From contig CAWGPZ010000014.1 of NCBI GenBank assembly GCA_963824605.1, positions 11,263 to 75,262 of the forward strand: a stretch of 64,000 nt of DNA, given 5' to 3'. Both the position numbers and the translations under genes were made by a program. Under the pieces are notes generated by a model. It was not told the DNA's origin, did no database searches, and saw nothing but the letters and a program-made list of their open reading frames with translations. Source of the DNA: an uncultured Actinomycetota bacterium (lineage in GTDB: Bacteria; Actinomycetota; Actinomycetes; JAHEKZ01). Positions within the stretch are counted from its first letter, which is position 1. Every line of letters begins with the position of its first letter. Of this stretch, positions 13,249 through 60,337 are shown in pieces.

Positions 13249-14540
13249 CTAGCGATCGGGGACTTCAATCTGCCAACCGCCCTCATGCACCAGACGGTGG
13301 TGGAACCGGCAGAGGAGAACCGCGTTGTCGACGTCGGTTGCGCCGCCCGCCGACCAGGGATGCACGTGGTGGGCGTCGGTGTGTGCTGGAGGGTCGTGTG
13401 CAGTTGGGGAAGCGACAGCCGCCATCGCGGAGCGCCAGCAGTCGCCGTTGGTGCGACGAGAAGGGCCGCTGGCTGCGCCCAAGCCCCATGGGGATCCCGT
13501 GAACGTCGAGCAGCACCGGGTTGATCTGCGCGTCGCAGGCGATGCGTGCGACGCCCACCGGGTGCAGCGGAGTGGCGCCGCCGGGAGTTTGTGGCAGCCA
13601 CGCGGTGCCTGGTAGCGTGGGAAAGCGGGAGCCTGACGCTAGTGGCGTCACCACTCGCTTCACCGGGCCCTCCGGCTATCAAGACCTGCAGGTGCGGCCG
13701 CTCGCCGCCGACCATCGGCAGCAGCCGGTGGTCGCAGGCCGTCCTGACGATGTCGGTGAGACCGTCGGCGCGGCGCTGGGCCGCACTCCTCGCGTCCCCT
13801 GGCCCCATCGGGACGAGGAACGGCTCGAGCGCGGCGTTGAGAAGGGCCGCTGACTCTGCGTCGAGCAGCCCGTCGACCGACGTCATGCCGTCCAGGAGGG
13901 GCGCCAGGGTCAGATGACGGCGCTCGAACTGCCGCTCGCAGTCGGCCAGCGTTCCATCGGGGTCGGCGACCAGTCGAAGGTGCTTTCCCGCGGTTCGCAC
14001 ATCAGCGACTGGCGCGGTCACCGCCAGGTCAGTCAGCAGGGCGACGGCTTCCGCCTGTCGACCGGCTGGGATGAATCGGACCGCTCGGTCGATGCTGCGC
14101 AGGTGGTCGAAGGTGATGCCGCCGCTGCGGAGGTGACCGACGGGCGCCGCAAGAACGTCGCGAGAGCGTCGGGCGATCCTGACCCGTTCACTGGCATCGC
14201 CGGGGGCCAGGCCGACCGCTCCTCGCAGCCAGCTCGCCGTGCTCGCGGCTCCGTGCAGCGTCTCTCCGTCACCTGCGGCATCGAAGTTGGCGACGGCGGT
14301 GAGCATCGCGGCATCGACGGCGTCGCGGAGCTGCTGCAGCCCGGCGACCCAGGCGGCTCGCTCGTCGGGGGAGGTGGCCGCCATCGTGCCTTCGACTTCT
14401 CGGTCGGTCCAGCCCCGCACGCTCCTCAAGCGCAGCAGCGAGCGGCGCGGGAAGCGAAGCGGGCCGGTACATGCGGAGAACCTCTCGACGGCTACGGATC
14501 TGATGGCGGCGGTGAGATCTCGTCGTGTCATCGGGTTCAT
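13249..14540 (-). pseudogene. HNH endonuclease of the DUF222 / REP13E12 family, disrupted by two frameshifts
   Basis: The DUF222-like N-terminal region (ANFDAAG...AASTASWLRGA) is in the frame of the 689-aa ORF. The HNH core ARIACDAQINPVLLD...RDGGCRFPNCTRP is in a second frame (ORF 13283-13663). The motif HHVHPWSAGGATDVDNAVLLCRFHHRLVHEGGW is in a third frame (ORF 13249-13482). Shifts lie near 13580 and near 13393. Confidence 0.75.
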
Positions 14541-14652
14541 CGCAGTGGGCTGTCCGCCTGAGTGATTCGACCCTAGAGGAGGCCACTGACAACGACGGCC
14601 GGTTCGTGAACAGTTACCCTCGACAGGTCGATCCCCGTCACGAAGGTAGCCA

Positions 14653-16185
14653 GTGTTCACCACGCTCCAGGACCGCCTGACCGCCACGTTCAAGAACCTC
14701 CGCGGCAAGGGCAAGCTCTCCGACGCCGATATCGACGCCACCCTGCGCGAGATCCGGGTGGCGCTGCTCGAGGCCGACGTCGCGCTCCCCGTTGTCAAGG
14801 AGTTCGTGGCGTCGGTGCGCGAGCGCGCCAAGGGCGCTGAGGTCTCGCAGGCGCTCAATCCCGCGCAGCAGATCGTCAAGATCGTCAACGAAGAGCTCGT
14901 GGGCATCCTCGGTGGCGAGACGCGGCGGATCCGGTTCGCCAAGACCCCGCCCACCGTCATCATGCTGGCTGGTCTGCAAGGCGCGGGAAAGACAACGCTT
15001 GCCGGAAAGCTCGCCCTGTGGCTGAAGAGCCAGGGACACCAGCCCGTTCTGGTCGCGGCCGATCTGCAGCGACCCAATGCGGTGCAGCAGCTGCAGGTGG
15101 TGGGTGAACGCGCGGGGGTTGCGGTCTTCGCCCCAGAGCCGGGCAGCGGAGTCGGCGATCCAGTTCGGGTCTCGCGAGACGCCATCACGTTTGCGAACGA
15201 CAAGCAGCACGACGTCGTCGTCGTCGACACCGCAGGCCGGCTCGGTGTCGACGAAGAGATGATGCAGCAGGCACGTCAGATCCGCGACGCCGTGAGCCCG
15301 GACGAGGTGCTCTTCGTCCTGGACGCCATGGTCGGCCAGGACGCGCTGGCCACGGCCCAGGCGTTCCTCGACGGCGTCGGTTTCGACGGGGTGGTTCTCA
15401 CCAAGCTCGACGGTGACGCCCGCGGTGGTGCAGCCCTTTCGGTGCGTGGCGTGACCGGCAAGCCGATCATGTTCGCCAGCAACGGCGAGAAGCTCGACGA
15501 GTTCGACGTCTTCCACCCCGAGCGGATGGCGTCCCGCATCCTCGACATGGGCGACATGCTCACCCTGATCGAGCAGGCCGAGAAGGTCTTCGAGCGCGAT
15601 CAGGCCGAAGAGATGGCCGCCAAGCTCGCGTCGGGCACCAACTTCACGCTCGAAGACTTCCTCGCACAGCTTCAGGCCGTGCAGAAGATGGGCTCGATCG
15701 GCAAGCTGCTCGGCATGCTCCCGGGCATGAGCGAGCACAAGGAGGCGATCAACAACCTCGACGACAGCGAGTTCGACCGCATCCGGGCGGTCATCCAGTC
15801 GATGACGCCGGGCGAGCGGGCTGACGTCAAGGTGCTGAACGCTTCGCGGCGGCAGCGGATCGCGTCCGGGTCAGGCACGCAGGTCAGTGACGTGAATCAG
15901 CTCGTCAACCGCTTCCTCGAAGCCCGCAAGATGATGAGTCAGATGGCCAAGGGCGGAGGCATCCCCGGGATGCCGGCGATTCCTGGGATGCCGGGGGGCG
16001 GAGCCGGCGGAGGGCGTCCGAAGAAGGGCAAGAAGGGCGCCAAGGGCAAGAAGGGCAAGGTGAGCGGAAACCCCGCCAAGCGTGCCCAGCAGGCGGCCGC
16101 CAAAGAGGCGGGGCAGACCGAGAGCACCCCGGCCGACACGCTGACCGAGCTTCCCGATGCCTTCAACGACCTGCTCGGCCGCTGA
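14653..16185 (+). CDS. ffh: signal recognition particle protein Ffh (SRP54)
   Basis: GLQGAGKTT and DTAGR GTPase motifs. Methionine-rich M-domain and Gly/Lys-rich C-terminal tail. Confidence 0.97.
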   Translation: MFTTLQDRLTATFKNLRGKGKLSDADIDATLREIRVALLEADVALPVVKEFVASVRERAKGAEVSQALNPAQQIVKIVNEELVGILGGETRRIRFAKTPPTVIMLAGLQGAGKTTLAGKLALWLKSQGHQPVLVAADLQRPNAVQQLQVVGERAGVAVFAPEPGSGVGDPVRVSRDAITFANDKQHDVVVVDTAGRLGVDEEMMQQARQIRDAVSPDEVLFVLDAMVGQDALATAQAFLDGVGFDGVVLTKLDGDARGGAALSVRGVTGKPIMFASNGEKLDEFDVFHPERMASRILDMGDMLTLIEQAEKVFERDQAEEMAAKLASGTNFTLEDFLAQLQAVQKMGSIGKLLGMLPGMSEHKEAINNLDDSEFDRIRAVIQSMTPGERADVKVLNASRRQRIASGSGTQVSDVNQLVNRFLEARKMMSQMAKGGGIPGMPAIPGMPGGGAGGGRPKKGKKGAKGKKGKVSGNPAKRAQQAAAKEAGQTESTPADTLTELPDAFNDLLGR

Positions 16186-16351
16186 GGCGGTTTGGGATGC
16201 CGGGCTCCCCTCTGGCAGACTGACGGGCTGAACCCGACGGGCTGGCGGCCCTCTCACCGCTCAGCGCCGACGAGTCCGTTTGTACTGACGCTCGACAACC
16301 CCACGTCGTGAGGCAGTGCATGTCCCACCAGAACCAGGAGTTCTCGCCACT

Positions 16352-16939
16352 GTGGCCGTCAAGATCAAGCTCAAGCGCATCGGCAAGATGCACCAACCGC
16401 ACTACCGCATCGTCATCGCCGACGCCCGCACAGCGCGTGGCGGCCGGGCGATCGAGGAGATCGGTCAGTACCACCCGATCGAGAACCCGTCGCGGATCCA
16501 GGTCGACTCCGAGCGCGTGCAGTACTGGCTCGGCGTCGGCGCCCAGCCGACCGAAGCTGTCGCGGCCATTCTCCGGGTGACCGGCGACTGGCAGTCCTTC
16601 AAGGGTGAGCCCGCGCCTCCCGCGATGCTGGTGGCTGAGGTCAAGGCCGACAAGAAGTCGGTCTTCGAGGCTGCGGCCAAGGAGTCGGCCGGCATCGACG
16701 AGAAGCCAGCCACGACGCCGAAGGCCAAGAAGAAGGCGGCCCCCAAGGCGGACGAGAAGGCAGAGCCCAAGGCTGCGGACAAGGCTGACGAGAAGGCGGC
16801 CCCCAAGGCGGACGAGAAGCCTGAGCCCGCGGCCGACGCGCCCGCCAGTGCTGACGCCGCCCCCGCGGCTCCGGCCGCTGACGCTGCCGCTTCAGACGAC
16901 GCCGGCAAGGACGCTCCCGAGAGTCCGGCAGACGCATGA
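16352..16939 (+). CDS. rpsP: 30S ribosomal protein S16 with long Ala/Lys/Pro-rich C-terminal extension
   Basis: [21 protein letters not shown]...IEEIGQYHP from a GTG start. About 100-aa AKP-rich tail built on a 27-bp DNA repeat. Confidence 0.9.
16733..16819. repeat. 27-bp direct repeat (aaggcggcccccaaggcggacgagaag) recurring with 60-bp period inside the rpsP tail
   Basis: Exact copies at 16733-16759 and 16793-16819. Confidence 0.7.
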
Positions 16940-17178
16940 TCGAGCAGGCCCTGGACCACTTGGTGCGAGGCATCGTCGACAACCCGGACGACGTCCAGGT
17001 GAGGTTGCGCGAGCAGCGTCGTGGTGGACGCCTCTACGAGGTCAGGGTGCATCCCGACGACCTCGGTCGGGTCATCGGTCGGGGCGGACGTACCGCGTCA
17101 TCGGTGCGAACGGTCGCCGATGCGCTGGCGAAGCGGCGCGTACGTGTCGACTTCATGGACTCAGCGGGATCCCGCTGA
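16936..17178 (+). CDS. KH-domain RNA-binding protein (Rv2908c/YlqC-like)
   Basis: 80 aa. [16 protein letters not shown] loop. ATGA overlap with the rpsP stop. Conserved partner of rpsP-rimM. Confidence 0.85.
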
Positions 17179-17223
17179 CCTTGCGCACCTTGCTGAACGC
17201 GTTGACCCGAAGGAACTGAGCGC

Positions 17224-18542: not shown

Positions 18543-18675
18543 GCAGGCCGTTCGTCGCGTGTCGTTCCTGCCACAGGGGGCACCGCGCGCCGTAGGCATT
18601 CATCCCGTGATGCGCACGGCTGCCCGCCGTCGCTGACCCACGCTCGGCTGACCTGTGGCAGCCGCAGGAGAACCC

Positions 18676-19035: not shown

Positions 19036-19803
19036 CGGCCCACGCCGCAAAGCCTCCCGCAGCTGCGGATGAGTCCGCATCGGTGAGTGAGAAGCGCCCG
19101 TCCTCCTTCTGGCGCGAGCTGCCCGTCCTGGTCGTGATCGCGCTCGTCCTGGCCTTCTCTGCTCAAGACCTTTCTGATCCAGGCCTTCTTCATCCCTTCG
19201 GGGTCGATGGAGAACACGTTGCAGGTGGGCGACCGGGTGATGGTCAACAAGTTGGCCTACACCCTGGGCGACATCGAACGCGGCGATGTCATCGTCTTCA
19301 ACGGCGTCGATTCGTGGGATCCCGAGATCGAGGTGGCCGACGCCGGCAACCCGTTCTCGCAGGCCCTGCGGTCAGTCGCAGGGGCGTTCGGTTTCGCCAG
19401 TGCCAGCGAGAAGGACTACATCAAGCGCGTCATAGGACTCCCCGGAGATCGGGTCAAGTGCTGCGACAAAGAGGGCCGGATCACGGTCAACGGTGTCCCG
19501 ATCGACGAGCCCTACATCTTCAAGGGCAACAAGCCGTCGAATGACCCGTTCGACATCCGCGTTCCCGATGGGCGCCTCTGGGTGATGGGTGATCACCGTG
19601 CGGCCTCATCGGACTCGCGGGCGCACATCGGCGACCCCGGTGGTGGTGCGATACCGGTCGACAGCGTCGTGGGGCGGGCCTTCGTCATCATCTGGCCCTT
19701 CACAGACACAGGGTTCCTGACACGACCCGACACCATCGACAACGACGCCATCGACGCGGCGCAGTCGAACGATTCACTCGAGAAGGAATCAAGTACGAAG
19801 TAG
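19032..19803 (+). pseudogene. lepB: signal peptidase I, copy 1, disrupted by a +1 frameshift at about 19158-19161
   Basis: TM anchor RELPVLVVIALVLAFS is in frame 0. The next frame then reads LKTFLIQAFFIPSGSMENTL (catalytic Ser box), with GDHRAASSDSR further on. An intact reading needs removal of one base in gccttctctgctcaag. Confidence 0.75.
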
Positions 19804-19824
19804 TGGAGCCCTGGGCTCTAGGGT

Positions 19825-20556
19825 GTGCATGGTCCCATCGCTGGGACGCACTTGGGAGAGCTGATGACGCAGTCCGGAACTCACGGCGGACCTACCAGCC
19901 GGCGTGGCACGCATTGGCTCGTCGAGCTCGTTCTGGTCGTCGTCGTGGCGCTGGCAGTCTCGGCCTTCGTGCGCGCCTTCGTCGCGCAGGCCTACTACAT
20001 TCCGTCCGGCTCCATGGAGCAGACCCTGCAGGAGAACGACTGGATTGTGGTCAGCAAGCTCAGCACCCGGTTCGGTGTCGTCGACCGCGGAGATGTGGTC
20101 GTCTTCGCCGACCCCGGGACATGGTTGCCGGACGCGCAAGCGTCGACCAATCCCGTGCGTCGCACGCTCGAGTTCGTGGGGGTCGCGCCGAACTCCGCCG
20201 AAGGCGACCTCGTCAAGCGTGTCATCGGTATCGGCGGCGACACCGTCTCGTGCTGCGATCCGCAGGGGCGGGTCAGAGTCAATGACGTCCCTATCGATGA
20301 GCCGTATCTGTTTCCGGGAGACAAGCCCGGCGACGCTCCCTTGGGGTGCTCGGGTGAGTTCGAGATCGCAGTACCGGCCGGCTCGCTATGGGTCATGGGT
20401 GACCACCGGGCCGTCTCTGAGGACTCCCGTTGCCAGAAGGAGCTGCAGAAGTTCGTGCCCCTCGACAAGGTGCAAGGGCGCACTGTCGCCGTGATCTGGC
20501 CGAGCGACAACTGGGCGATGGTGGGCGGCAGGTCCTCCTTCGATGATGTGTCGTGA
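19825..20556 (+). CDS. lepB: signal peptidase I, copy 2 (intact)
   Basis: IPSGSMEQTL, VVSKL, GDHRAVSEDSR boxes. Alternative ATG start at 19864. Confidence 0.9.
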   Translation: MHGPIAGTHLGELMTQSGTHGGPTSRRGTHWLVELVLVVVVALAVSAFVRAFVAQAYYIPSGSMEQTLQENDWIVVSKLSTRFGVVDRGDVVVFADPGTWLPDAQASTNPVRRTLEFVGVAPNSAEGDLVKRVIGIGGDTVSCCDPQGRVRVNDVPIDEPYLFPGDKPGDAPLGCSGEFEIAVPAGSLWVMGDHRAVSEDSRCQKELQKFVPLDKVQGRTVAVIWPSDNWAMVGGRSSFDDVS

Positions 20557-20577
20557 GCGACCCACTGGCTGATTAGG

Positions 20578-21078
20578 GTGACGAGTGTGGCTCCAGTCCG
20601 TCGATCGTCAGCTCGCATGGTGATCGTTGACGCCGAAGACCGCGTGCTCCTGCTCCGGGGCGGTGATCCGCAACGGCCCGGCCCCGCGGTATGGCACACG
20701 CCAGGGGGCGGTATCGACCCGGGAGAGGCACCACAGCACGCCGCCCTACGTGAACTTGCCGAAGAGGTCGGCCTTGAGCTGGACGTGACCGGGCCGCTGG
20801 TGTGGACGAGGAGGTTCGAGTTCTCGTTCGACGGGGTCTGGTACGACCAGGACGAGGTCTTCTACTTCACACGCGTTGACGAGCACGAGGTCGACAGCTC
20901 TCGTCACACCCCCCTGGAGCGGCGCTACCTGTCGGGTCACCGCTGGTTCTCGGTGACCGACCTGGAGAGCTTCGACGAGCTCGTCGCGCCTCCCGACCTC
21001 GCCGAGCAGCTGAGTCGGCTCCTTCGCGACGGTCCACCGGCCCTGCCGGTCGAGGTGGGCCCGGCGGTCATGCCATGA
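20578..21078 (+). CDS. NUDIX hydrolase
   Basis: NUDIX box GGGIDPGEAPQHAALRELAEEVG. Start uncertain (possibly ATG at 20617). Confidence 0.8.
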   Translation: MTSVAPVRRSSARMVIVDAEDRVLLLRGGDPQRPGPAVWHTPGGGIDPGEAPQHAALRELAEEVGLELDVTGPLVWTRRFEFSFDGVWYDQDEVFYFTRVDEHEVDSSRHTPLERRYLSGHRWFSVTDLESFDELVAPPDLAEQLSRLLRDGPPALPVEVGPAVMP

Positions 21079-21802
21079 CCCGCCCTCGTCCATCGCTCCG
21101 TCGTGAGAAGTCACTTCTGCGTGAGGACGGTCGCTTTCTGGCCGGCTGTGACGAGGTCGGACGCGGAGCACTTGCAGGACCGGTCTCGGTGGGCATGGTG
21201 GTCGTCGATGCCGCTGCGGGACGAGTGCCGCCAGGACTCGCCGACAGCAAGCTGCTGTCTGCGAGTCGCCGCGAGGAGCTGGTACCGGTGATCCATCGGT
21301 GGTGCCGTGCGAGCGCGGTAGGGCACGCCTCGCCTCAGGAGGTCGATGACTGGGGTCTGACCCAGGCGCTCCGGCTTGCTGGGCTGCGTGCCCTCGGAGC
21401 ACTCGACATCGCGCCGGACATCGTGCTGTTGGACGGATCGTTCGACTGGCTGACGCCACCGTCGGATGAGGTGACCCAGACGATCAGGGTCTGTGGCAGC
21501 TCGAACCTGGCGATTGTCCCGCCACTCCGCCGTATCCGGTCCTCGACGTGCCGCCGATCGTCACTCACGTCAAGGCTGACATGTCGTGCGCCTCGGTGGC
21601 CGCCGCCAGTGTGCTGGCCAAGACGACGCGCGATGCCATGATGACTGAGCTTGCCGCCACTCACCCACACTTCGGATGGCACGAGAACAAGGGGTACGCG
21701 TCCGATCAGCACCGCGACCAGATCCGCGCCCATGGCCCCTGTGAGCACCACCGTCGCAGCTGGCGACTCGGTGTCGCGCAAACCCCTGCGGACAGCAGCT
21801 GA
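21075..21802 (+). pseudogene. rnhB: ribonuclease HII, with a frameshift between about 21480 and 21550
   Basis: N-terminal part GCDEVGRGALAGPV...DSKLLS is in the frame of ORF 21075-21641. C-terminal part VKADMSCASVAAASVLAKTTRD...GWHENKGY is in the frame of ORF 21548-21802. Confidence 0.8.
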
Positions 21803-26347: not shown

Positions 26348-27307
26348 ATGTCCGACCAACCCGACGCCGCGCAGCCACTGCCGCCCGACGTGCTCTCCGA
26401 CGACTTGGCGTCAGGGTTGGCGGCGTTCGACCGGCACCTGCGGTCGGAGCGGGGGCTGTCGCCGCGTTCGGTGCGCGCGTATCTCGCCGACGTCACGGGT
26501 CTCCTCGAGCATGTGCAGAGACGTGGGCGCAGCACGATCAGCGAGATCGACCTCGCAGATCTGCGGAGCTGGCTGGCGCTGCAGCAGACCACGGGGCGAG
26601 CCCGCAGCACGATCGCGCGCAAGGCGTCAGCGGCGCGCACCTTCACCCGCTGGGCTGAGCGAAGTGGGCGGGCGGGACGAGATGCAGCGGCGCGGCTGGC
26701 TCGGCCGAAGGCCCACCGGACGCTTCCTCAGGTCCTTGGTGCGGGTCAGGTGACCAATCTCCTCGACGGAGCGCTTGCGCGCGCTCAGAGCGACCCAGAC
26801 CCGGTCGCCCTTCGAGACGTTGCCATCTTGGAGCTGCTCTACGCCACCGGCATCCGGGTGAGCGAGCTGTGCGGGCTCGACGTCGACGACGTCGACGACG
26901 CGAGACGAACCGTTCGGGTCTTCGGCAAGGGGGCCAAGGAGCGCACGGTGCCCTTCGGGGCTCCGGCGGAGAAGGCACTCGATGCCTGGCGATCAGGGCC
27001 ACGGGCGACGCTGGTGCGCGCCGATAGCGGGCCGGCTTTGTTTCTCGGGCGGAGGGGGCGTCGGATCGACCAGCGCGCGGTTCGTACCCTTGTGCACGAG
27101 CACCTGGCAACGGTCGAGAACGCACCCGATCTCGGTCCGCATGGACTGCGGCACACCGCAGCCACGCACCTGCTCGAGGGCGGCGCCGATCTGCGCTCCG
27201 TTCAAGAACTGCTGGGGCACGCTACGCTCGCGACCACCCAGATTTACACTCATGTCTCTGTTGACCGACTGAAGAGGGCGTATGACCAAGCGCACCCCCG
27301 CGCCTGA
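26348..27307 (+). CDS. xerC: site-specific tyrosine recombinase XerC
   Basis: Catalytic R..HxxR..Y: [38 protein letters not shown]. Confidence 0.92.
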
Positions 27308-27575
27308 ACCGGACGCGTCGGCGTCCAGGACGTCCTCGAAGCGGTCGACCGGGGCGAAGAGCGCCGACAAGCCGGCCGCCAAGCGCAACGCGTCCAAGAA
27401 GGCGGCCGTGAAGAAGACCACGCCCAAGGAGCCGACGGCCAAGCGAGCCGCGTCCAAGAAGGCGGTGGCCAAGAAGAGCTCAACCACGAAGAGTGCTGTT
27501 GCCGCAGAGGCGCCGTCCTCGGCACAGCGGCCTCCAGCTGCCAGGATCTCCAAGGCCGCCGCGGCCGGGCCGCCG
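27282..27575 (+). CDS. Lys/Ala-rich basic segment (histone-tail-like). Probably the N-terminal extension of the downstream sigma factor, joined through a frameshift.
   Basis: ATG with [23 protein letters not shown] / [13 protein letters not shown] from a 60-bp tandem repeat. Codon usage is good in this frame up to about 27570 and then collapses (AGA/AGG). The sigma-factor frame becomes coding-like from about 27575. Confidence 0.35.
27378..27497. repeat. two diverged 60-bp tandem units encoding [13 protein letters not shown] / [13 protein letters not shown]
   Basis: gccaagcgcaacgcgtccaagaaggcggccgtgaagaag versus gccaagcgagccgcgtccaagaaggcggtggccaagaag, 60 bp apart. Confidence 0.65.
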
Positions 27576-27601
27576 CTGAGAAGGCCCGCGAGGAAGGCAC
27601 G

Positions 27602-28408
27602 TTGGACGCCGACGCCCTTGAGGCCCTCGACGAGGTCGTGGCAGCAGAGGAAGCCCTGCAGCAGCTGTGGCGAGACTTCAAGGACACCGGTGAGCAGAGC
27701 CTTCGCGAGCGGTTGATCCTGCACTACTCACCCCTGGTGAAGTACGTCGCCGGCCGCGTGGGTGTGGGGCTGCCACCCAACATCGAACAGGCCGATCTCG
27801 TGTCGTACGGCATCTTCGGCCTGATCGACGCCATCGAGAAGTTCGACCTCGAGCGCGCCATCAAGTTCGAGACCTACGCCATCAGTCGTATCCGCGGGGC
27901 CATCATCGATGAGCTGCGCTCGATCGACTGGATCCCGCGCTCGGTGCGCTACAAGGCACGAGAGGTGGAGCGGGCATACGCGGCGCTTGAGGCCAAGCTG
28001 CATCGCACGCCCACCGAGCCCGAGGTGGCCGACGAGATGGGGATCACGCTCGACGAGCTGCACACCATCTTCAGTCGCGTGTCGTTCGTCAACGTGGTCG
28101 CGCTTGACGAGCTGCTCAATGTGGGTGGCGAGAAGGGCGACAAGCTCAGCCTGGTCGACACCCTGGAAGACACCAAGGCCGAAGACCCTGTTGCGGCTTT
28201 CGAGTCAGAAGAGACCAAGTACCTGCTGGCCAAGGCGATCAACCACCTCCCTGAGCGCGAAAAGATCGTCGTCACTCTCTACTACTACGAGGGGCTCACT
28301 CTGGCTGAGATCGGTCAGGTACTGGGAGTCACCGAGAGTCGCATCTGTCAGATGCACACCAAGGCCGTCCTGCAGCTACGCGGTCGCCTCGCCGACGCAC
28401 CGGACTAG
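27602..28408 (+). CDS. FliA/WhiG-family (sigma-28-type) RNA polymerase sigma factor
   Basis: Region 2 [16 protein letters not shown]. Region 4 [19 protein letters not shown]. Position matches whiG in Streptomyces. True start uncertain; the frame is open back to 27308. Confidence 0.88.
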
Positions 28409-28509: not shown

Positions 28510-29032
28510 TCACGGTTCGGCCGGGAGCAGCACCACCCGTCCGCGCATCAGGGCGAGTGGATCGATGTAGGTGTCGTGGTGGCGAGCGCCCCAGTGCAGG
28601 CACGGACCGGCGGGGCAGTGCGGCTCGGTGGCCAGACGTCCGATGAGGTCTGCCGAGTCGACGAGGTCGCCGACCTCAACCCGAGGTCTGACGGGCAGGT
28701 AGGTGGTGCGCACATCGCCCTCGTGAGCGATCACGACGACGGAGCGGCCGGCCACCCGCCCGGCGAACTGCACCCGTCCGGGCAGCGCCGAGCGGACGGG
28801 CTGGCCCGGCCAAGCCGACGAGATCGACCCCACGGTGACCGGGGCCGTACTGTTCAGGTGCCTCGAAGCCCCGTTCCACCCGCGGAGGCTGAACGGGCCA
28901 GGTGGCTCTGAGCTGATCGGCGACGCCTGGGCCCGGAGCCGGCGGCACGACCGAACTGCGAGGGCTGAACGGGGCGGCGAGCACGGTGGAGGTTGCGACA
29001 GCTGCCAGGAGTCCGAGGACGAGAACCTTCAT
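28510..29032 (-). pseudogene. M23-family (LytM-domain) metallopeptidase, with a frameshift at about 28812-28822
   Basis: Signal peptide MKVLVLGLLAAVATS and HRGVDL (HxxxD) are in the frame of ORF 28676-29083. WPGQPVRS...FAGRVAGRSVVVIAHEGD...CLHWGARHHDTYIDPL (HxH) is in the frame of ORF 28510-28833. Confidence 0.75.
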
Positions 29033-29361
29033 GACAGCGATGGTCGGGCTCTGGGGTCGGACGCCGATCGCCGGCGCGACCATCGGTGGACAAGGGTCAC
29101 GCCCGGTCCCTGTGGACGAGCCCCAGGCCGGATTAGGAACGTCCGGGGTCGGCCCGTAGACTGCCCCTCAGCACCCTGCTTGCAGGGTGACTTCGCATGT
29201 CCGTCCCGCCCGGCCCGTTCTTCGGGTCCGGGGGTTGGCCACTCGGTCCGACCCGATCTCACGATCGGTGCGGCAGGCCGCGACAGGCATCAGGGTTCGC
29301 GACGCCGTCGCGGGCACAGAACCGAGTACCGCGCGTCAGCGTGGGTAAGGAGAGTACGGCT

Positions 29362-30279
29362 ATGGCCGTCGTCACCATGAGGCAGTTGCTCGAAAGTGGA
29401 GTCCACTTCGGGCACCAGACTCGCCGTTGGAACCCGAAGATGAAGCGCTTCATCTTCACCGAGCGCAACGGCATCTACATCATCGACCTGCAGCAGTCGC
29501 TGGCCTTCATCGACCGCGCCTACGAGTTCGTCAAAGAGACGGTGGCGCACGGCGGAACCGTCATGTTCGTGGGCACCAAGAAGCAGGGCCAAGAAGCCAT
29601 TGCCGAGCAGGCCACTCGCGTGGGCATGCCCTACGTCAACCACCGCTGGCTCGGCGGAATGCTCACCAACTTCCAGACGGTTCACAAGCGGCTGCAGCGC
29701 CTCAAGGAGCTCGAAGAGATCAACTTCGATGTCGTCGCCGGTTCGGGTCTCACGAAGAAGGAACTCCTCGTGCTGAACCGCGAGAGGGTCAAGCTCGCAC
29801 GCACCCTTGGCGGTATCCGTGACATGGCGAAGATCCCAAGCGCGCTCTGGGTGATCGACACCAACAAGGAGTCGATCGCCGTCGACGAAGCCAAGAAGCT
29901 GGGAATTCCCGTGGTGGCCATCCTCGACAGCAACTGTGACCCCGACGACGTCGACTACCCGATCCCGGGCAACGATGACGCGATTCGATCGGTCGCTCTG
30001 CTCACGCGCGTCATTGCCGACGCCGTTGCTGACGGTCTGGTCTCGCGCGCCGGTGCAGCAGCTGGGGACGACAAGCCAGAAGCTGCCGAACCCGGTGCCG
30101 ACGAGCCGTTGCCCGAGTGGGAGCGCGAGCTGCTGAGTGGCGACGTTGCCACCCCGGCCGCCGATGCCCCCACCGAGCAGAAGCCCGCCCAGGCCGAGGC
30201 CCCCGCAGAGGCAGCGGCACCAGCTGAGGCCCCCGCAGAGGCGGCGGCACCGGCCGAGGCCCCCGCCGAACAAGCCTGA
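29362..30279 (+). CDS. rpsB: 30S ribosomal protein S2 with acidic Ala/Glu/Pro-rich C-terminal tail
   Basis: ATG with [25 protein letters not shown]. The ORF track adds 55 codons upstream. Confidence 0.95.
30195..30275. repeat. 30-bp tandem repeat (gaggcccccgcagaggcRgcggcaccRgcY), 2.7 copies, encoding the [10 protein letters not shown] tail of S2
   Basis: Read directly. Confidence 0.7.
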
Positions 30280-33393: not shown

Positions 33394-34050
33394 ATGGTGG
33401 ATGATGACGGCATGACTTTGGCAGCGAAGGCGCCCGACGAGCGTCGTCGACGGATTCTCGCTGCCGCGATCGCGGTGCTGCGCGATCGCGGTTTCTCGGG
33501 CACGCGGGTGGCCGACATCGCCGAGACGGCCGGCACGAGTCCGGCTTTGGTCCTGTACCACTTCAGCAGTCTCGCTGACGTCCTTGTTGCCGCGCTCGAA
33601 TCGGTCGAGGACGACTACTACGCGCAGCTGGCCGCCTTCAACGACTCCGAGCCGATCGACCGGCTGGTTCGTATGGCCCTTCTGTCGACCGAAAGTGGCC
33701 CAGCCTTCGGTGACTGGAAGCTCTGGCTCGAGGTCTGGGTGAGGGGCCTCCACGACGAGCGGATCGATGAACTGCGGCGAGCTTCTGACGAACGTGGGCG
33801 CGAAGCGGTCCTGGAGGTCGTTGCCGCCGGCGTTGCGTCGGGCGAGTTCACCGTCGAAGACCCGGCTCGCACGACGCTTCGCCTCACCAGCCTGATGGAC
33901 GGACTGGCCGTCCAAGCAGTACTTGGCGGCTCCGGTCTCACACCGGAGGGCTTGGCCGGTGAGTGGCTGACCGGAGTTGCCTGCGAGCTTGGGCTCGATC
34001 CACGCCAACTCGTCGAGCGAGCAAGGGCGGCTGTTGCCAATGGCTCCTGA
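33394..34050 (+). CDS. TetR-family transcriptional regulator
   Basis: HTH: [40 protein letters not shown]. The ORF track extends upstream artifactually. Confidence 0.8.
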
Positions 34051-34066
34051 ACCGGGCCAGCTCACG

Positions 34067-35158
34067 ATGATCGCGCCTCGTCGAGGTAAACCGCCTCGCC
34101 ATCTCGCCGATCTCGACATGGCCGCCCGCCGTGAATGGGTCCGCGAGCTGGGCTACCCGCCCTTCCGAGCCGACCAGCTGTCGCGTCACTACTTCGAGCG
34201 CTTGGTGAACCGCGCCGATGACATGACGGACCTGCCTTCCTCCGGTCGCGGCGAGCTCGTCGGCACCGTTTTTCCCGAGCTTCTGACCCCTGTGCGCAGT
34301 CTGTCCTGCGACGACGGAGCAACGGTGAAGAACGTCGTGCGGCTCTTCGACGGGGCCATGGTCGAAAGCGTTCTCATGCGCTATCCCGGACGCACCACCA
34401 TGTGTGTCTCCTCGCAGGCAGGCTGCGGCATGAACTGCCCGTTCTGTGCGACGGGCCAGGCCGGATTGACCAGGAACATGTCGACGGCGGAGATCGTCGA
34501 ACAGGTGGTTGCTGGCGCCCGCATGCTGGCAGCCGGCGAGGTGGCCGGCGGCGCCGGCCGGGTGTCGAACGTCGTCTTCATGGGGATGGGTGAACCCCTG
34601 GCCAACTATCGATCGGTCATGGATGCAGTTCGGCGCATCACCGAGCCGACGCCCGCCGGGCTCGGCATCTCTGCTCGGTCGGTGACGGTGTCGACGGTCG
34701 GGTTGGTTCCAGCGATGGAACGTTTGACCGGCGAGGGCATACCAGTGACGCTGGCGCTGTCACTGCACGCGCCCGACGACGACCTCCGCAACACGCTCGT
34801 CCCGCTGAACACGCGGTACTCCGTCGACGAAGTGTTGGCCGCAGCATGGTCGTACGCCGACGTCACCGGGCGCCGGGTCTCGATCGAGTACGCGTTGATT
34901 CGCGACATCAATGACCAGCGCTGGCGCGCCCACCTGCTGGGTTCGATGCTCAAGAACCGACTCGTGCACGTCAACGTGATCCCGTTGAACCCCACTCCCG
35001 GATCGAAGTGGACGGCATCGACGCCCGAGGCCGAGCGCACGTTCGTGCGGACGCTCGAAGATCATGGAGTCGCGGTAACGGTTCGCGACACCCGCGGACG
35101 CGAGATCGACGGGGCGTGCGGACAGCTGGCCACTTCCACGGTGGCCGAGGAGGCCAGC
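34067..35158 (+). CDS. rlmN: 23S rRNA (adenine2503-C2)-methyltransferase RlmN (radical SAM). No in-frame stop before the downstream channel gene.
   Basis: CxxxCxxC: [13 protein letters not shown]-terminal GACGQL motif. The frame continues without a stop into the next feature; the end coordinate is the last codon before that gene's ATG. Confidence 0.82.
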
Positions 35159-35727
35159 ATGAGTGAGTCGCAGCAACAGCGGCAGCATCAGCCGGCGCGG
35201 CCGGCCCAGGCAGCCGATGCCCGAACTGTCGTGGCCTCTCTCGCGCGCACTGCGCTGGCAGTTGCCGCACTGCTCTTCGTGTACTTTCTCCTGCCCCTCA
35301 CCGACCGCGACAACGTCCCGGTCGGTGTTGCGGTCGTGGTGGTGGGCATGTCGGTGTTTGGGGCCATCTTTGTTCGGCAGCTTCGACAGATCCGAAAGGC
35401 GGAGTTCCCCGTGCTCAGGGCGGTCGAGGCGATCGCGCTGGTGGCGACCCTGTTCGTGGTCGTGATGGCGAGCGTCCACTACGGCATCGCCGAGACCACG
35501 CCGATTCCTACAGCGAGGTGATGAGTCGTCTTGACGCCCTGTACTTCACCGTCACCACTCTTGCCACGGTCGGCTTCGGCGACATCACGCCGACCTCGGA
35601 CGTCGCGCGGGCGGTGACCACCGTCCAGATGGTCATGGGCGTCGTGCTTCTGGGTGTCGGCGTGCGCCTCCTGGTGAGCGTCGCCCAGAAAGCAGCTGAG
35701 GAGCGCCGCGGCTCCGGAGGCCAGTAG
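35159..35727 (+). pseudogene. K+-channel-like membrane protein (TVGFGD selectivity filter). N-terminal TM part is in-frame with rlmN; the pore/C-terminal part is shifted by one frame.
   Basis: TM helices ([47 protein letters not shown]) are in rlmN's frame up to a TGA at 35516-35518. The pore helix plus filter SRLDALYFTVTTLATVGFGDITP and a further TM are in another frame (ORF 35518-35727). Junction near 35480-35515. Confidence 0.55.
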
Positions 35728-52264: not shown

Positions 52265-52405
52265 CCGTAGGTCTTTCTTTTCGGGTGCGCCCTTGCCACA
52301 CTGAGCCGTTGGCCTTCGGGCCAGAGGCCAGATCGCGAGGGCGCACCCGACAGACTGTCCTAGCCCTCGACCCCCATCTCCCACGACTGCGATGAATCAG
52401 GACCG

Positions 52406-55436: not shown

Positions 55437-55514
55437 GGCTCGTCCGCTGGTTGGGCCTGGGGTCGGAGTGCGCCACCCCAGGGTGTCGTCCATACTCTTC
55501 GTCGAGGTGAGAAC

Positions 55515-56941
55515 GTGTCCGGTGTCCTGTCCGAGGTACCCGTAAGCCCTGCGAGCATTCGCGAATCGTTGCGCGACGCTGAGCCGGCGTCATATTGGCT
55601 TGATGACCCGGGCGCTCCTGAGCCACGCCCACAGCTGGTCGAGCACCTGCGCTGTGACCTGCTGGTGGTCGGCGGCGGCTTCACCGGGCTGTGGACGGCT
55701 CTGCTGGCCAAGGAGGAAGACCCCTCGCTCGATGTGGTGCTCGTCGAGGGGGAGCGCCTCGGGTGGGCAGCGACCGGACGCAACGGTGGATTCGTGGCCT
55801 CGAGTCTTACCCATGGTCTCCCCAACGGCGTCGACCGGTTCGCCGACGAGATGCCTGCGTTGTTGCGGCTGGGCGACGAGAATCTCGACGGCATCGAGAA
55901 GGCGATCGCCCGCTATGGCATCGACGCCCAGTGGGAGCGGAACGGCGAGCTCACTGCCGCCTACGAGCAGTGGCAGGTCGACGAGCTGGGTCACTATGTC
56001 GAGCAGGGCAAGGAGTACGGCGTCGACATCGAGCTGTGGAGCGCCGACCGCATGCGGGCCGAGGTCAACTCGCCGACCTACCTCGGTGGGCTGCATGAGC
56101 CCGAGGGAACCGCCCTGGTGAACCCCGCGCGCCTGGCGTGGGGGCTGGCAGCGGCGGCCGAGAGTCTGGGCGTGCGGATCTTCGAGCGGAGCAAGGTGGT
56201 CGGCCTCGACGATGAGGACGGCCAGATGGTGGCCACGACGGGGTACGGCCAGGTACGCGCACCGAAGGTCGCCCTAGCCACCAACATCTTTCCCAACCTG
56301 GTCAAGCGAGCTCGGCCGTACGTGATCCCGGTGTGGGACTACGTCCTCATGACCGAGCCGCTGAGCGCCGAACAGCTCGCCTCGATCGGATGGCAGAACC
56401 GTCAAGGAATCGGCGACGCCGGCAATCAGTTTCACTACTACCGGCTCAGCGCCGACAACCGAATCCTCTGGGGCGGCTACGACGCCATCTATCACTACGG
56501 CAACGGGCTGAGCGAAGAGCTCGCGCAGCGCCCTGAGTCCTTCGTCACGCTCGCCGGGCACTTCTTCACGACGTTCCCACAGCTGGAGGGCATCCGGTTC
56601 AGCCACACCTGGGGCGGCGCGATCGACACGTCGACCCGCTTCTGTGCTCTCTGGGGGCAGGCGTACAGCGGGAAGGTGTCGTACGTGCTCGGGTACACAG
56701 GTCTCGGGGTAGGCGCGACTCGCTTCGGTGCCCAGGTCATGCTGGACCACCTGCACGGTCGCCGCACCGAGCGCACGGAGCTGGCAATGGTCCGCAAGAA
56801 GCCGATCCCGTTCCCCCCGAGCCGATCAAGTCGGCCGGCATCCAGCTCACCCGCTGGTCCATCAGTCGGGCTGACCAGGAGGGGAAGCGCAACGCCTGGT
56901 TGCGGACTCTGGATCGACTGGGGCTCGGCTTCGACTCGTGA
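55515..56941 (+). pseudogene. FAD-dependent oxidoreductase (DAO family, gamma-glutamylputrescine/aminoaldehyde oxidase-like) with a -1 frameshift in a C6 homopolymer at 56813-56818
   Basis: GTG with GAGGTGA RBS. FAD motif DLLVVGGGFTGLWTAL. After ttcccccc the annotated frame gives a junk tail. The -1 frame gives the family-typical C-terminus PPEPIKSAGIQLTRWSISRADQEGKRNAWLRTLDRLGLGFDS, ending at TGA 56939-56941. Confidence 0.8.
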
Positions 56942-57077
56942 TTGACAGGTTGTAAGGGCTAGCGACCTTTGCATTACATCTTGCAGGTTGTTCTTGACGC
57001 CTCAAGCAGCAAGACTGGACGGGTGCCGCGACCGAGATCTCGGTCGGTCCCCCCGTCCCGCTGTGAGAGGCCCATTC

Positions 57078-58571
57078 ATGAGCAAGCACGTGACCCACTG
57101 GATCGATGGCAAGGCCTTCGGCGGCGTTGCCGACCGCCAGGGCGACATCTACGACCCTGCCACCGGACAGGTCACCGGCAAGGTCGACTTCGCCGATGTC
57201 AGCCTCGTCGATGAGGCTGTTGCTGCCGCCAACGCCGCGTTCCACGAGTGGCGGCACGCCTCGCTCACCAAGCGCAGCCAGGTGCTGTTCAAGTTCCGCG
57301 AGCTGCTGAACGCGCGCAAGGGTGAGATCGCCGAGCTGATCACCGCTGAGCACGGCAAGGTGCTCTCCGACGCTCTGGGCGAGGTCACCCGAGGTCAAGA
57401 GGTCGTGGAGTTCGCCTGCGGGATTCCCCACCTGCTGAAGGGCGGATTCTCCGAGAGCGTGTCCACGCGGGTCGACGTGTACTCCATCCGTCAGCCGCTC
57501 GGGGTCGTGGGCATCATCTCGCCCTTCAACTTCCCGGCCATGGTGCCGATGTGGTTCTTCCCGATCGCCATCGCAGCCGGCAACGCGGTCATCGTGAAGC
57601 CGAGTGAGAAGGACCCGTCAGTTGCCAACTTCCTGGCCGAGCTCTGGGCCGAGGCTGGTCTGCCGGCAGGGGTGTTCAACGTCGTGCACGGCGACAAGGT
57701 CGCCGTCGACCGCCTCCTCGACCACCCCGACGTCAAGGCTGTCTCGTTCGTGGGTTCGACGCCGATTGCCCGGTACGTCTACGAGACGGGCACCAAGAAC
57801 GGGAAGCGAGTTCAGGCTCTCGGCGGCGCCAAGAACCACATGCTGGTGCTGCCGGACGCCGACCTCGATCTCGCCGCTGACCAGGCGATCAACGCCGGGT
57901 TCGGATCTGCCGGCGAACGGTGCATGGCCATCTCGGCGCTGATCGCGGTCGACAGCGTGGCCGATGAGCTGGTGGCGAAGATCAGCGAACGTATCGCCAC
58001 CCTCCGCACGGGCGACGGACGTCGCGGGTCCGACATGGGCCCGCTGGTCACCGGGCAGCACCGCGACAAGGTCGTCGGCTATGTCGCTGCCGGCGTCGAC
58101 GAAGGCGCGACGTTGGTCGTCGACGGGCGCGATGTCGAACCAGACGGTGACGCCGGTGGTTTCTGGCTCGGGCCGACACTCTTCGACAACGTCACCCCCG
58201 ACATGAGCATCTACACCGACGAGATCTTCGGCCCGGTGCTCTCGGTCCTCCGAGTTCACTCCTATGACGAGGGCCTGAAGCTGATCAATGACCACCCGTA
58301 CGGCAACGGCACGGCCATCTTCACCAACGATGGCGGTGCCGCTCGTCGCTTCCAGAACGAGGTCGAGGTCGGCATGGTGGGCATCAACGTGCCCATCCCC
58401 GTCCCCATGGCGTACTACTCGTTCGGTGGGTGGAAGAACTCGCTCTTCGGCGACACGCACGCTCACGGACAGGAGGGCGTGCACTTCTACACCCGGGGCA
58501 AGGTCGTGACCAGCAGGTGGCTCGATCCGAGCCACGGCGGGATCAACCTCGGTTTCCCGCAGAACGCCTAG
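57078..58571 (+). CDS. mmsA: CoA-acylating methylmalonate/malonate-semialdehyde dehydrogenase
   Basis: Family-specific catalytic region GFGSAGERCMAISA. ALGGAKNHMLV. 497 aa. Confidence 0.88.
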   Translation: MSKHVTHWIDGKAFGGVADRQGDIYDPATGQVTGKVDFADVSLVDEAVAAANAAFHEWRHASLTKRSQVLFKFRELLNARKGEIAELITAEHGKVLSDALGEVTRGQEVVEFACGIPHLLKGGFSESVSTRVDVYSIRQPLGVVGIISPFNFPAMVPMWFFPIAIAAGNAVIVKPSEKDPSVANFLAELWAEAGLPAGVFNVVHGDKVAVDRLLDHPDVKAVSFVGSTPIARYVYETGTKNGKRVQALGGAKNHMLVLPDADLDLAADQAINAGFGSAGERCMAISALIAVDSVADELVAKISERIATLRTGDGRRGSDMGPLVTGQHRDKVVGYVAAGVDEGATLVVDGRDVEPDGDAGGFWLGPTLFDNVTPDMSIYTDEIFGPVLSVLRVHSYDEGLKLINDHPYGNGTAIFTNDGGAARRFQNEVEVGMVGINVPIPVPMAYYSFGGWKNSLFGDTHAHGQEGVHFYTRGKVVTSRWLDPSHGGINLGFPQNA

Positions 58572-58580
58572 GAGCTGTCT

Positions 58581-58622
58581 GACGTCGAGAGTCCCGGGCA
58601 GGCCCCGGGGGCTCTCGACGTC
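58581..58622. terminator. strong inverted repeat GACGTCGAGAG...CTCTCGACGTC with nested cccgggcaggccccggg, 10 bp after the mmsA stop
   Basis: 11-bp perfect outer stem plus inner palindrome. Typical high-GC intrinsic-terminator-like structure without a U-tract. Confidence 0.5.
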
Positions 58623-58682
58623 GGCCGCGTCACTCGCCTGGCGGATTTCCACCTCGACAGCGCCCCCTCATGATGGAGCATC

Positions 58683-59219
58683 ATGAATGGCCGTTCAGGA
58701 AACTCGGGGAGTCGTGACGTCATCGGCGTCATTCTCGCGCTTCGCCAGGCCCTGCGAGAGACGCCGACCCAGCAGTGTCCAGAGGTGGCGGCCGAGTACC
58801 TGTGCGAGCTCTTCGACGGATCGATGGCGGCCATCAATCTCATGGACTACGGGCGTTCGCGCTTCCGCACGATCGCCAACGTGGGCAAGCTGGTGGGGGC
58901 GGAGCGGCGATCACCGGATGGGGAAACCTACGCCTTTGCTGACTTCCCGTACACCACTCAGCACCTGGCGCGGGGTGCTGCCTACCGGTCTGCGCTGGAC
59001 GATCCTGCGTGCCCGACCGAGTACCGAGAGATGTTGTCGGCCGACCGCAGGACGGGGTGCCTTGGAGCACCGATCCGGGCGAATGGAAACCCGCTCGGCG
59101 AGCTCTGGGTGGCACGTGACAACGATCAGCCCTTCACCGACGTCGAGGAGGACCTCGCGGTTGCATGCGGGGCCACACTGGCGCGTTTCTGCCGTACGCA
59201 GTTGTCGGTGGCCAGCTGA
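58683..59219 (+). CDS. stand-alone GAF-domain protein
   Basis: 178 aa. GAF-like pattern (ANVGKLVGAERRSPDGETYAFADFPYT...GAPIRANGNPLGELWVAR). Confidence 0.65.
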   Translation: MNGRSGNSGSRDVIGVILALRQALRETPTQQCPEVAAEYLCELFDGSMAAINLMDYGRSRFRTIANVGKLVGAERRSPDGETYAFADFPYTTQHLARGAAYRSALDDPACPTEYREMLSADRRTGCLGAPIRANGNPLGELWVARDNDQPFTDVEEDLAVACGATLARFCRTQLSVAS

Positions 59220-59296
59220 CGGATCCGCAGTCCTCCCCGTGTTCGGTCCACCACCGATGGCTCCCGGTCGGGTACAGCCCCCGATAGGGTGCGAGC

Positions 59297-60337
59297 ATGA
59301 CCCGCTACGGCCCGATGTTCGGCCCAGACATCACGTTTCTCGGCGTTCCTGCCTGCGACCTCGACACCCCTGACACGTACGCGGACGCCGACGTCGTCAT
59401 CGTCGGTGCGCCCTTTGACGGCGGCACCAGTCATCGTCCGGGTACCCGCTTCGGGCCCATGGCGATGCGGTCGACCGACTACCTGCCGCACGATGGGCTC
59501 CGTCCACATATGGCGATGCGCGTCGAGGCCCTCGCCGAGGATCTTCGGGTGGTCGACGCGGGTGACCTCGAGGTCTACTCAGGCGACGTGGTGCGCAGCT
59601 GCCAGATCATCGAGGACGCCGTGGCGCAGATCGCGGAGGCAGGCAAGATCCCGCTCGTGCTTGGCGGCGATCACACTGTCACCTGGCCCGACGTCACCGG
59701 CGTGGCCCGCTCGGCGGGCTTCGGCCGGGTCTCGATCATCCACTTCGACGCCCACGCAGACACGGGGGACATCGAGTTCGGATCTCTCTACGGGCATGGC
59801 CAGCCGATGCGACGTCTGATCGAGTCGGGAGCGGCGCGCGGCGACCGGTTCCTCCAGCTCGGACTGCGCGGCTACTGGCCCGAACCGGAGACGCTTGACT
59901 GGATGGCCGACCAGAACATGCGCTCGTTCCACATGAGCGAGATCGTCGCCAAGGGGCTCGACCAAGTGCTGGATGAGGCTTTTGTCATCGCCACCGATGA
60001 CTGCGACGGCATCTTCTTGTCGGTCGACATCGATGTCTGTGATCCCGGGCACGCCCCCGGCACAGGCACCCCCGAGCCTGGGGGCCTGACGGCGCGTCAG
60101 CTGCTCGATGCGGTGTCTCGGATCTGCTACGAGGTGCCGGTCGTCGGCATCGACGTCGTCGAGGTCTCGCCGCCCTACGACCACGCCGAGATCACTGCGT
60201 ATCTCGGCAACCGCGTGGTTCTTGAGGCCTTGTCAGGTATCGCGCGACGCCGCAAGGACGGCGGCCAGGTGGTCTGGGACCGCGCGACGCCGCTGCTTGA
60301 GGGACGAGGCACGCAGCAGCCTCCCCATTCGGCGTAG
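59297..60337 (+). CDS. speB: agmatinase / ureohydrolase (arginase family)
   Basis: Mn-binding motifs IHFDAHADT, GGDHTVT, SVDIDVCDP. Confidence 0.85.
   Translation: MTRYGPMFGPDITFLGVPACDLDTPDTYADADVVIVGAPFDGGTSHRPGTRFGPMAMRSTDYLPHDGLRPHMAMRVEALAEDLRVVDAGDLEVYSGDVVRSCQIIEDAVAQIAEAGKIPLVLGGDHTVTWPDVTGVARSAGFGRVSIIHFDAHADTGDIEFGSLYGHGQPMRRLIESGAARGDRFLQLGLRGYWPEPETLDWMADQNMRSFHMSEIVAKGLDQVLDEAFVIATDDCDGIFLSVDIDVCDPGHAPGTGTPEPGGLTARQLLDAVSRICYEVPVVGIDVVEVSPPYDHAEITAYLGNRVVLEALSGIARRRKDGGQVVWDRATPLLEGRGTQQPPHSA

Follow-up and report, generated by a model that had tools for sequence, protein, structure and literature searches.

Methylation motifs, such as the Dcm site CCWGG, can cause base-calling errors in Nanopore consensus sequences. 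For Nanopore bins with less than about 40-fold coverage, polishing with short reads was reported to be needed, owing to frameshift errors (PMC9262707). Microflora Danica MAGs are Nanopore-only and were generated by Flye assembly with one round of Medaka polishing (PMC12313526).

The window analysed here, a 64-kb stretch of DNA from an uncultured high-GC actinobacterium, contains eight otherwise conserved genes with a total of ten single-base indels that break the reading frame. Judged from sequence comparison, these breaks are very probably uncorrected single-base errors in the consensus of a metagenome assembled from long reads (probably Nanopore only). A first-pass annotation of the same DNA had offered assembly artefacts and a lineage accumulating pseudogenes without choosing between them. 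The private nature of the lesions, their dependence on assembly type and the absence of relaxed selection favour the former and speak against the latter.

Frame breaks in the window

Junctions were located by tblastn against the window, using intact orthologues from 98%-identical contigs as queries, and a Pfam profile search was run on the window's own ORF fragments. These approaches took the place of a GC3 frame plot, which at 67% GC was too noisy to locate junctions. Both indicated that one family runs on across two frames at the broken genes, and all the frame disruptions claimed in the first-pass annotation were found to exist, 0-40 nt from the coordinates given there. The affected features are as follows:

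13164..14306, minus strand: DUF222-HNH endonuclease gene; insertions at 13618 (+T), 13391 (+G) and 13255/6 (+1)
19084..19800, plus strand: signal peptidase I copy 1 (lepB1); +C at 19159, separating the transmembrane helix from the catalytic domain
21075..21796, plus strand: RNase HII (rnhB); one-base deletion, -C of GGTCGACC, at 21472/3
27282..28405, plus strand: WhiG/FliA-family sigma factor whose N-terminal extension is rich in Lys and Ala; -1 at 27566, cutting the extension off the sigma domains
28512..29083, minus strand: M23 peptidase; one-base insertion at 28815-28818
34040..35158, plus strand: rlmN; T of the TAG stop missing at 35155/6
35159..35724, plus strand: Ion_trans_2 K+ channel gene; -G at 35502
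55515..56938, plus strand: FAD-dependent oxidoreductase (DAO family); -T at 56818/9, right after a C6 run at 56813-56818
28488 and near 19806, 38819, 38856, 60502 and 63792: intergenic single-base indels private to the window (six by count), resembling the coding lesions in kind

Approximately 50 neighbouring genes are without damage. Full-length genes include smc, ffh, recG, ftsY, trmD, tsf, pyrH, frr, cdsA and about 40 others, and the earlier statement that the long genes smc, recG and ffh are intact agrees with the tblastn comparison. Of 57 genes, 49 are full length and about 14% of the window genes are affected. Each of the ten coding lesions is a 1-nt indel, and no nonsense substitution, larger deletion or insertion-sequence insertion was found among them. 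Nine of the ten lie between 13 and 36 kb of the window. By our own estimate (about P = 0.001), a uniform error rate would rarely give so uneven a distribution, which counts against an artefact and calls for a local cause, for instance a drop in coverage or a mixture of strains.

Individual broken genes

The DUF222-HNH gene had been described as carrying two shifts; its disruption was evident from both the relatives and the Pfam matches, and the number of insertions proved to be three. Together they sum to +3, the third restoring the frame at the 3' end, and the fragments match in three frames (DUF222 model 30-235, then 251-306, then HNH 14-42). The gene is a single ORF of 380-414 aa in the three relatives that cover it, all of which are long-read or MAG contigs, and none of the three has the additional G at 13391.

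In lepB1, the additional C is missing from all 11 relatives, as expected if the first copy of lepB is broken as previously proposed. The intact orthologue has 239 aa and matches TIGR02227 over positions 4-161 of 162, the second lepB1 ORF of the window matches Peptidase_S26 33-168, and the protein past the shift is 98.6% identical to that of the relatives. The break noted in rnhB was also recovered: residues 1-133 were found in frame 3 and residues 134-241 in frame 2, the RNase_HII model was matched at 1-107 and then 125-197, and the base lost from the window is present in 13/13 relatives.

The sigma-factor and M23 peptidase breaks were both real, with the correction that the order in which the genes had been named did not follow the coordinates: the site at about 27570 is the sigma junction, at its N-terminal part as proposed, and 28815 belongs to the peptidase. 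Residues 1-103 of the sigma factor (WhiG match NF004935, E = 1.4e-129) lie in frame 3 and residues 96-375 in frame 2, the latter with 100% identity; at this junction, five of five relatives differ by -1 mod 3. The inserted base in the M23 peptidase gene is likewise absent in 5/5 relatives (190 aa), and the window's second ORF retains Peptidase_M23 positions 11-96.

A missing stop plus a shift had been suspected in the rlmN/K+ channel region, and both were located. The end of rlmN reads GGCCTAGCATGAG in the relatives vs GGCCAGCATGAG in the window, and the T of the stop is kept in 6/7 relatives, the odd one being contig_90669, which is divergent at this site. RlmN has 372 aa in the relatives; because the stop-codon T is missing, rlmN of the window is read through in frame into the K+ channel gene, giving a fused ORF of 514 aa. 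Residues 1-115 of the channel lie in frame 2 and residues 116-189 in frame 1, and the G at 35502 is present in 6/6 relatives.

For the FAD oxidoreductase, the shift had been placed within the C6 run. The location was right; the tract has its proper length, and it is the following T that is lost. Four of five relatives have TTCCCCCCTGAG and an intact frame (475 aa), and the remaining one, contig_90669, has C5T by a separate one-base loss. Two long-read contigs each losing one base differently at this C6T site looks like a context-dependent base-calling error.

Comparison with relatives of the same population

The comparison of orthologous loci that the first-pass annotation had called for revealed that the breaks are private to the window's assembly at every junction. 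Same-population contigs (96-99.8% identical) from 5-13 independent assemblies, or three relatives in the case of DUF222-HNH, have an intact frame at each junction, with proportions ranging from 3/3 to 13/13 except for the rlmN stop (6/7) and the FAD oxidoreductase (4/5). The protein downstream of each shift is 95-100% identical to that of the relatives. As the breaks are private to one assembly and consist of 1-nt indels, they point to consensus errors and not to decaying genes.

Private frameshifting indels were also counted in the compared coding sequence of other contigs. The window has 10 in 39 kb, contig_90669 has 19 in 39 kb, the CALOFY MAG has 8 in 39 kb and contig_7167 has 4 in 28 kb, vs 0 in 135 kb for 28 short-read contigs (MEGAHIT, SPAdes, JGI). 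The excess in the window over the short-read contigs is far beyond chance, which bears out the initial impression of an unusual frameshift density. The four long contigs, window included, thus have 4-19 private frameshifts each, in genes that differ between contigs: the breaks of contig_7167 hit rimM and lepB2, both intact in the window, and those of contig_90669 hit pyrH, dprA, the sigma factor and an acyl-CoA dehydrogenase. Some of the genes broken in the other noisy contigs are presumably essential or near-essential. Frameshift density tracks assembly type, not lineage. L020, the nearest species representative in GTDB (92% nucleotide identity), was used solely as an outgroup and was excluded from these rates, since five "private" indels in its xerC look partly compensating.

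Sequencing technology and sequence context

One of the contigs, ERZ25039600 contig_45642, and the Microflora Danica MAG MFD09779.bin.3.245 are one and the same record. The two Flye-style "contig_N" assemblies (19 and 4 frameshifts) are linked to the Nanopore-only Microflora Danica data through the accession series, the basis for ERZ25039603 and ERZ25039514 being neighbouring accession numbers and contig naming. A literature search for the CALOFY MAG (GCA_942492725, CALOFY01), ERZ25039603, ERZ25039514 and MFD09779 returned no match. An exact search with the window's 717-aa GGDEF-EAL protein likewise retrieved no record. The short-read contigs of this population do not exceed 12.7 kb; since the window measures 64 kb or more, we infer that it comes from a long-read assembly.

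Uncorrected indels of the long-read or homopolymer type had been proposed. The uncorrected indels stand; the homopolymer type does not, as only 3/15 window-private indels touch a run of at least 4 bases, and one of the 126 runs of at least 5 bases in the window is affected. The lesions resemble consensus errors that arise from low coverage or mixed strains, and are mostly not homopolymer errors. No slippery motif shared by the ten coding sites was found. A further observation is that 3/15 window-private indels (27566, 38819 and 63792) delete a base within a CCWGG site (post hoc binomial test, P about 0.009, with small numbers). No sign of CCWGG methylation was found in the window's organism, and methylation error is recorded here as a note only, since it concerns 3 of 15 sites and was considered post hoc.

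Under the favoured reading of consensus errors, low coverage or mixed strains may have led assembly and polishing to add or drop single bases, and we infer that one of these was the cause. Such errors would split ORFs, remove the rlmN stop and leave gene calls fused or shortened, the true genes of the organism being intact with nothing biological at work.

Selection and alternative explanations

The pN/pS ratio is 0.16 for the broken genes (0.12 without the mobile-type DUF222-HNH) vs 0.08 for intact genes, and third codon positions hold 71% of the differences in the broken genes. The broken genes are still under purifying selection, and no relaxation with dN/dS toward 1 was observed, with limited power for very recent events. 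A very recent true frameshift would not be expected to show relaxed selection either, which counts against this argument for artefacts. Moreover, to our knowledge there is no strictly essential single-copy gene among the eight genes hit in the window; we estimate the probability of this under random hits at about 0.04-0.07, and it also counts against an artefact.

REP13E12-group relatives of DUF222-HNH genes are often degenerate. A mixture, in which most breaks are assembly errors and one or two are real, would concern, for example, the DUF222-HNH gene or the redundant lepB copy 1; we consider it very unlikely. The DUF222-HNH gene has the highest pN/pS among the broken genes (0.36), has its three lesions inside 360 nt, and is covered by only three relatives, each a long-read or MAG contig. 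On the other hand, it is unbroken in each of them, and its insertions, which cancel out without opening any stop-free alternative product, look more like a patch of poor consensus. The complete agreement of the 11 relatives on lepB1 and the conservation of its protein beyond the shift argue against a real loss there. That some lesions are real and recent, either because the C6T site is hypermutable and was struck separately in two strains or because loss of redundant genes (lepB1, rnhB, the HNH element) is setting in, is likewise improbable to a high degree.

Genuine strain-specific pseudogenes would mean early genome decay, with about 14% of the genes recently hit by true frameshifts; this is extremely unlikely. 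The hit genes are, on general knowledge, dispensable or redundant (a second lepB, rnhB, a WhiG-type sigma factor, a peptidase, a channel, an oxidoreductase and a mobile-type HNH gene), and their lesions are concentrated at 13-36 kb, both of which would suit such decay. However, no lesion is common to any of the 3-13 relatives, whose identity reaches 99.4%, and three other Flye-style or MAG contigs behave alike with other genes hit, pyrH and rimM among them, at a rate that drops to zero in short-read contigs. Decay also fits poorly with the low pN/pS and with a lesion spectrum of ten 1-nt indels, mostly outside slippage-prone repeats, that lacks nonsense changes, deletions and insertion sequences.

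Recoding at programmed ribosomal frameshift sites, or phase variation with the oxidoreductase C6 as an on/off contingency locus, was rejected as close to negligible: the window and contig_90669 did each drop a base at C6T independently, but every protein is a single ORF in the relatives, so that a frameshift is unnecessary, the ten sites have no slippery motif in common, contingency tracts are usually longer than six bases, the tract is C6 in the window and four relatives alike with the loss falling on the adjoining T, and C5 occurs solely in contig_90669, which itself has 19 other private frameshifts.

Implications and comparison with known systems

The finding is a matter of quality control only. 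Until this contig and its sister long-read MAGs are polished, no biological meaning should be given to their gene calls, pseudogene counts and protein lengths, nor to fusion proteins such as RlmN-K+ channel. Even without the reads, such errors can be polarised and corrected by means of short-read contigs that public metagenomes offer for the same population.

The window resembles reductive evolution, as known from Mycobacterium leprae and recently host-restricted symbionts, in having many frame-broken conserved genes within a normal, syntenic gene order. It differs in that its lesions are unshared with close relatives and come without nonsense changes, deletions, insertion-sequence expansion or relaxed selection, and in that other long-read contigs repeat the pattern with different genes affected. 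With Nanopore methylation-motif errors it shares the three indels within CCWGG; the 12 other sites are without the motif. Compared with the indel errors described for Nanopore-only assemblies (Sereika et al. 2022, PMC9262707; IDEEL test), the lesions lie mostly outside homopolymers and are thus less like the classic R9.4.1 homopolymer under-call. In other respects the likeness is close: single-base indels split or fuse conserved gene calls, about 86% of the window genes (49/57) are full length, and the breaks are absent from the short-read assemblies of the population and differ between its long-read assemblies.

Disrupted genes and exact lesions

The window (67% GC) is an actinobacterial chromosome segment with a conserved gene order, running from recG-rsmD-coaD and rnc-fpg-smc-ftsY through ffh-rpsP-rimM-trmD-rplS-lepB-lepB-rnhB, dprA-xerC-whiG and rpsB-tsf-pyrH-frr-cdsA-rlmN to genes of polyamine and aldehyde catabolism. 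By using exact-protein look-ups (Ffh, Frr, PotC, RplS, a glyoxalase and a KH protein), numerous contigs from the window's population were found (96-99.8% identity), and their intact orthologues, which span the NCBIfam family models end to end, were translated and used as tblastn queries against the window. Approximately 50 window genes aligned end to end in a single frame at 98-100% identity, including smc, ffh, ftsY, trmD, tsf, pyrH, frr, cdsA and the aldehyde dehydrogenases, in agreement with the first-pass annotation that long genes such as smc and ffh are intact. Eight genes were disrupted: DUF222-HNH, lepB copy 1 (the first of two signal peptidase I genes), rnhB, a WhiG-family sigma factor, an M23 peptidase, an Ion_trans_2 K+ channel and a FAD oxidoreductase are split by frameshifts, and rlmN lacks its stop codon. 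The same splits could be detected without relatives by Pfam searches of the window's own fragments, with model positions running on from frame to frame (DUF222 30-235, then 251-306, then HNH 14-42 in DUF222-HNH; RNase_HII 1-107, then 125-197 in rnhB; S26 33-168 in lepB copy 1; M23 11-96 in the peptidase). Exact lesion positions were read from the DNA alignment.

Coding lesions of the window, with same-population relatives that are intact at the junction
13618, +T, DUF222-HNH
13391, +G, DUF222-HNH; 3/3
13255/6, +1, DUF222-HNH
19159, +C, lepB copy 1; 11/11
21472, -C, rnhB; 13/13
27566, -1, sigma factor; 5/5
28815-28818, +1, M23 peptidase; 5/5
35155, -T, rlmN stop codon; 6/7
35502, -G, K+ channel; 6/6
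56818/9, -T, FAD oxidoreductase; 4/5

The disruptions are thus confirmed, and the positions first proposed were correct to 0-40 nt. DUF222-HNH carries three shifts rather than the two initially noticed, and the sigma factor and peptidase are both broken but in the opposite order (~27570 is the sigma factor, 28815 the peptidase). The FAD oxidoreductase is indeed broken at its C6 run (56813-56818), not within it: the run has the right length and the following T is lost. At 35155, TAG C ATG becomes AGC ATG, so that rlmN reads on in frame into the channel gene.

Distribution of lesions among assemblies

The window stands alone at every junction in comparison with its same-population relatives; at the FAD oxidoreductase site, a short-read contig 99.4% identical to the window has the frame intact. 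Loci were grouped by assembly, and frameshifting indels private to one assembly were counted at positions covered by at least three relatives.

Private coding frameshifts by assembly (coding sequence compared)
Window: 10 (39 kb)
contig_90669 (ERZ25039514): 19 (39 kb)
CALOFY MAG (GCA_942492725.1): 8 (39 kb)
contig_7167 (ERZ25039603): 4 (28 kb)
28 short-read contigs (MEGAHIT k141, SPAdes NODE, JGI): 0 (135 kb)

The noisy contigs differ in which genes are broken. In contig_7167 these are rimM and lepB copy 2, neither of which is broken in the window, and the public contig_90669 (loci L004, L013, L102 and L122), which is much noisier than the window, has pyrH, dprA, the sigma factor and an acyl-CoA dehydrogenase among the targets of its 19 frameshifts. 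Some genes broken in the noisy long contigs are presumably essential, and decay of long contigs only, each in its own genes including such ones, is not credible. Insertions predominate among the private indels of contig_90669, and deletions make up approximately half of those in the window, suggesting different error profiles. Short-read contigs of the window's population reach at most 12.7 kb, and from the window's length we infer a long-read assembly.

Lesion type and sequence context

Each of the ten coding lesions is an indel of 1 nt; nonsense substitutions, larger deletions and mobile-element insertions are absent. Since runs of at least four bases adjoin only 3 of the 15 window-private indels, and only one long run is affected (the window has 126 runs of at least five bases, 19 of at least six), most of the errors do not belong to the homopolymer type; they resemble consensus noise from low coverage or mixed strains. 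Of the "long-read or homopolymer type" indels first suspected, uncorrected assembly indels are retained, mostly not of the homopolymer kind. The base lost from the C6T site is a C in contig_90669 and the T in the window, two distinct one-base losses in one awkward context. Three window-private single-base deletions (27566, 38819 and 63792; 3/15, post hoc P ~0.009) lie in CCWGG sites, a hint of methylation-related base-calling error that serves as a lead only.

Selection on the disrupted genes

The window was aligned codon by codon to intact orthologues. The disrupted genes have a pN/pS of 0.163 (~0.12 without the mobile-type DUF222-HNH), 103 of their 145 differences fall at third codon positions, and segments 3' of each shift retain 95-100% protein identity to relatives; hence, these measures give no sign of relaxed constraint. 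Intact genes have a pN/pS of 0.08, with the intact PucR, GntR, GGDEF-EAL and Cupin genes equal to or above the disrupted set. This test supports an artefact but is not decisive alone, as a very recent event would give the same picture.

Other differences between the window and its relatives

Between the aldehyde dehydrogenase and a GAF-domain gene, the window (58550-58600) is missing an 817-nt segment that relatives have (relatives' loci L012 14007-14823 and L013 ~14005-14833). The segment encodes a 172-aa ORF that is Cys-rich and lipoprotein-like and has no Pfam match, and a direct repeat of ~20 nt from the dehydrogenase 3' end, TTCCCGCAGAAYGCMTARGA, flanks it; the difference resembles either a collapse in assembly or a real indel polymorphism between direct repeats. 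The 15-nt tandem repeat CAGCCCAGTGATCCC, which separates smc from a 120-aa ORF (window 11430-11475; L001, a contig_7167 locus, 6210-6285), is longer by two copies (30 nt) in contig_7167 than in the window. The same contig has an additional 539 nt with a 56-aa ORF between ftsY and DUF222-HNH (L001 7953-8492; window 13143), absent from the window and, judged by gene spacing, from the CALOFY MAG and contig_90669. The C-terminal Pro/Ala/Glu-rich repeat of ribosomal protein S2 (window 30140-30200) varies by +/-30 nt among strains, a real length polymorphism, since the reading frame is preserved and both variants occur among short-read contigs. The tandem signal peptidase I genes (window 19084-20556; 239/256 aa and 230/236/243 aa) are both kept in all relatives, and two long-read contigs are each broken in a different copy (the window in copy 1, contig_7167 in copy 2).

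Origin of the frame breaks and implications

The first-pass annotation had left two explanations side by side, uncorrected assembly indels and a lineage accumulating pseudogenes. Lineage-wide pseudogenisation is unsupported, because the breaks are private to the window, their density tracks assembly technology (none in 135 kb of short-read sequence) and relaxed constraint is not seen. Judged from these sequence comparisons, the breaks are very probably uncorrected assembly indels, a reading that is strongly supported, and they are not a biological feature. Nine of the ten coding frameshifts fall within 13-36 kb (23 kb), whereas 36-64 kb holds one and 1-13 kb holds none. Such clustering requires something local to this region, and a dip in coverage or mixed strains in the assembly graph may be responsible. 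To our knowledge, none of the eight broken genes is strictly essential, which under random hits has a P of ~0.04-0.07 by our own estimate. Given this, the clustering and the inferred long-read origin, there is a slight chance that one or two lesions are real, with DUF222-HNH as the most likely candidate. Broken or fused genes of this contig should not be interpreted biologically, and such errors can be polarised against publicly available short-read contigs from the same population.

The nearest GTDB species representative is MFD09779.bin.3.245, an uncultured Actinomycetota MAG from Microflora Danica (~92% nucleotide identity), and the nearest cultured genus is Kineococcus (TrmD identity ~65%). 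Because ERZ25039600 contig_45642 and the Microflora Danica MAG contig CAVPLY010000011.1 are one record, adjacent ERZ accessions whose contigs are named in the same Flye style very probably belong to Microflora Danica as well. Its MAGs are Nanopore-only Flye assemblies with one round of Medaka polishing (PMC12313526), and the same group has reported that Nanopore bins below ~40-fold coverage still need short-read polishing, with indels leading to frameshifted gene calls (PMC9262707).
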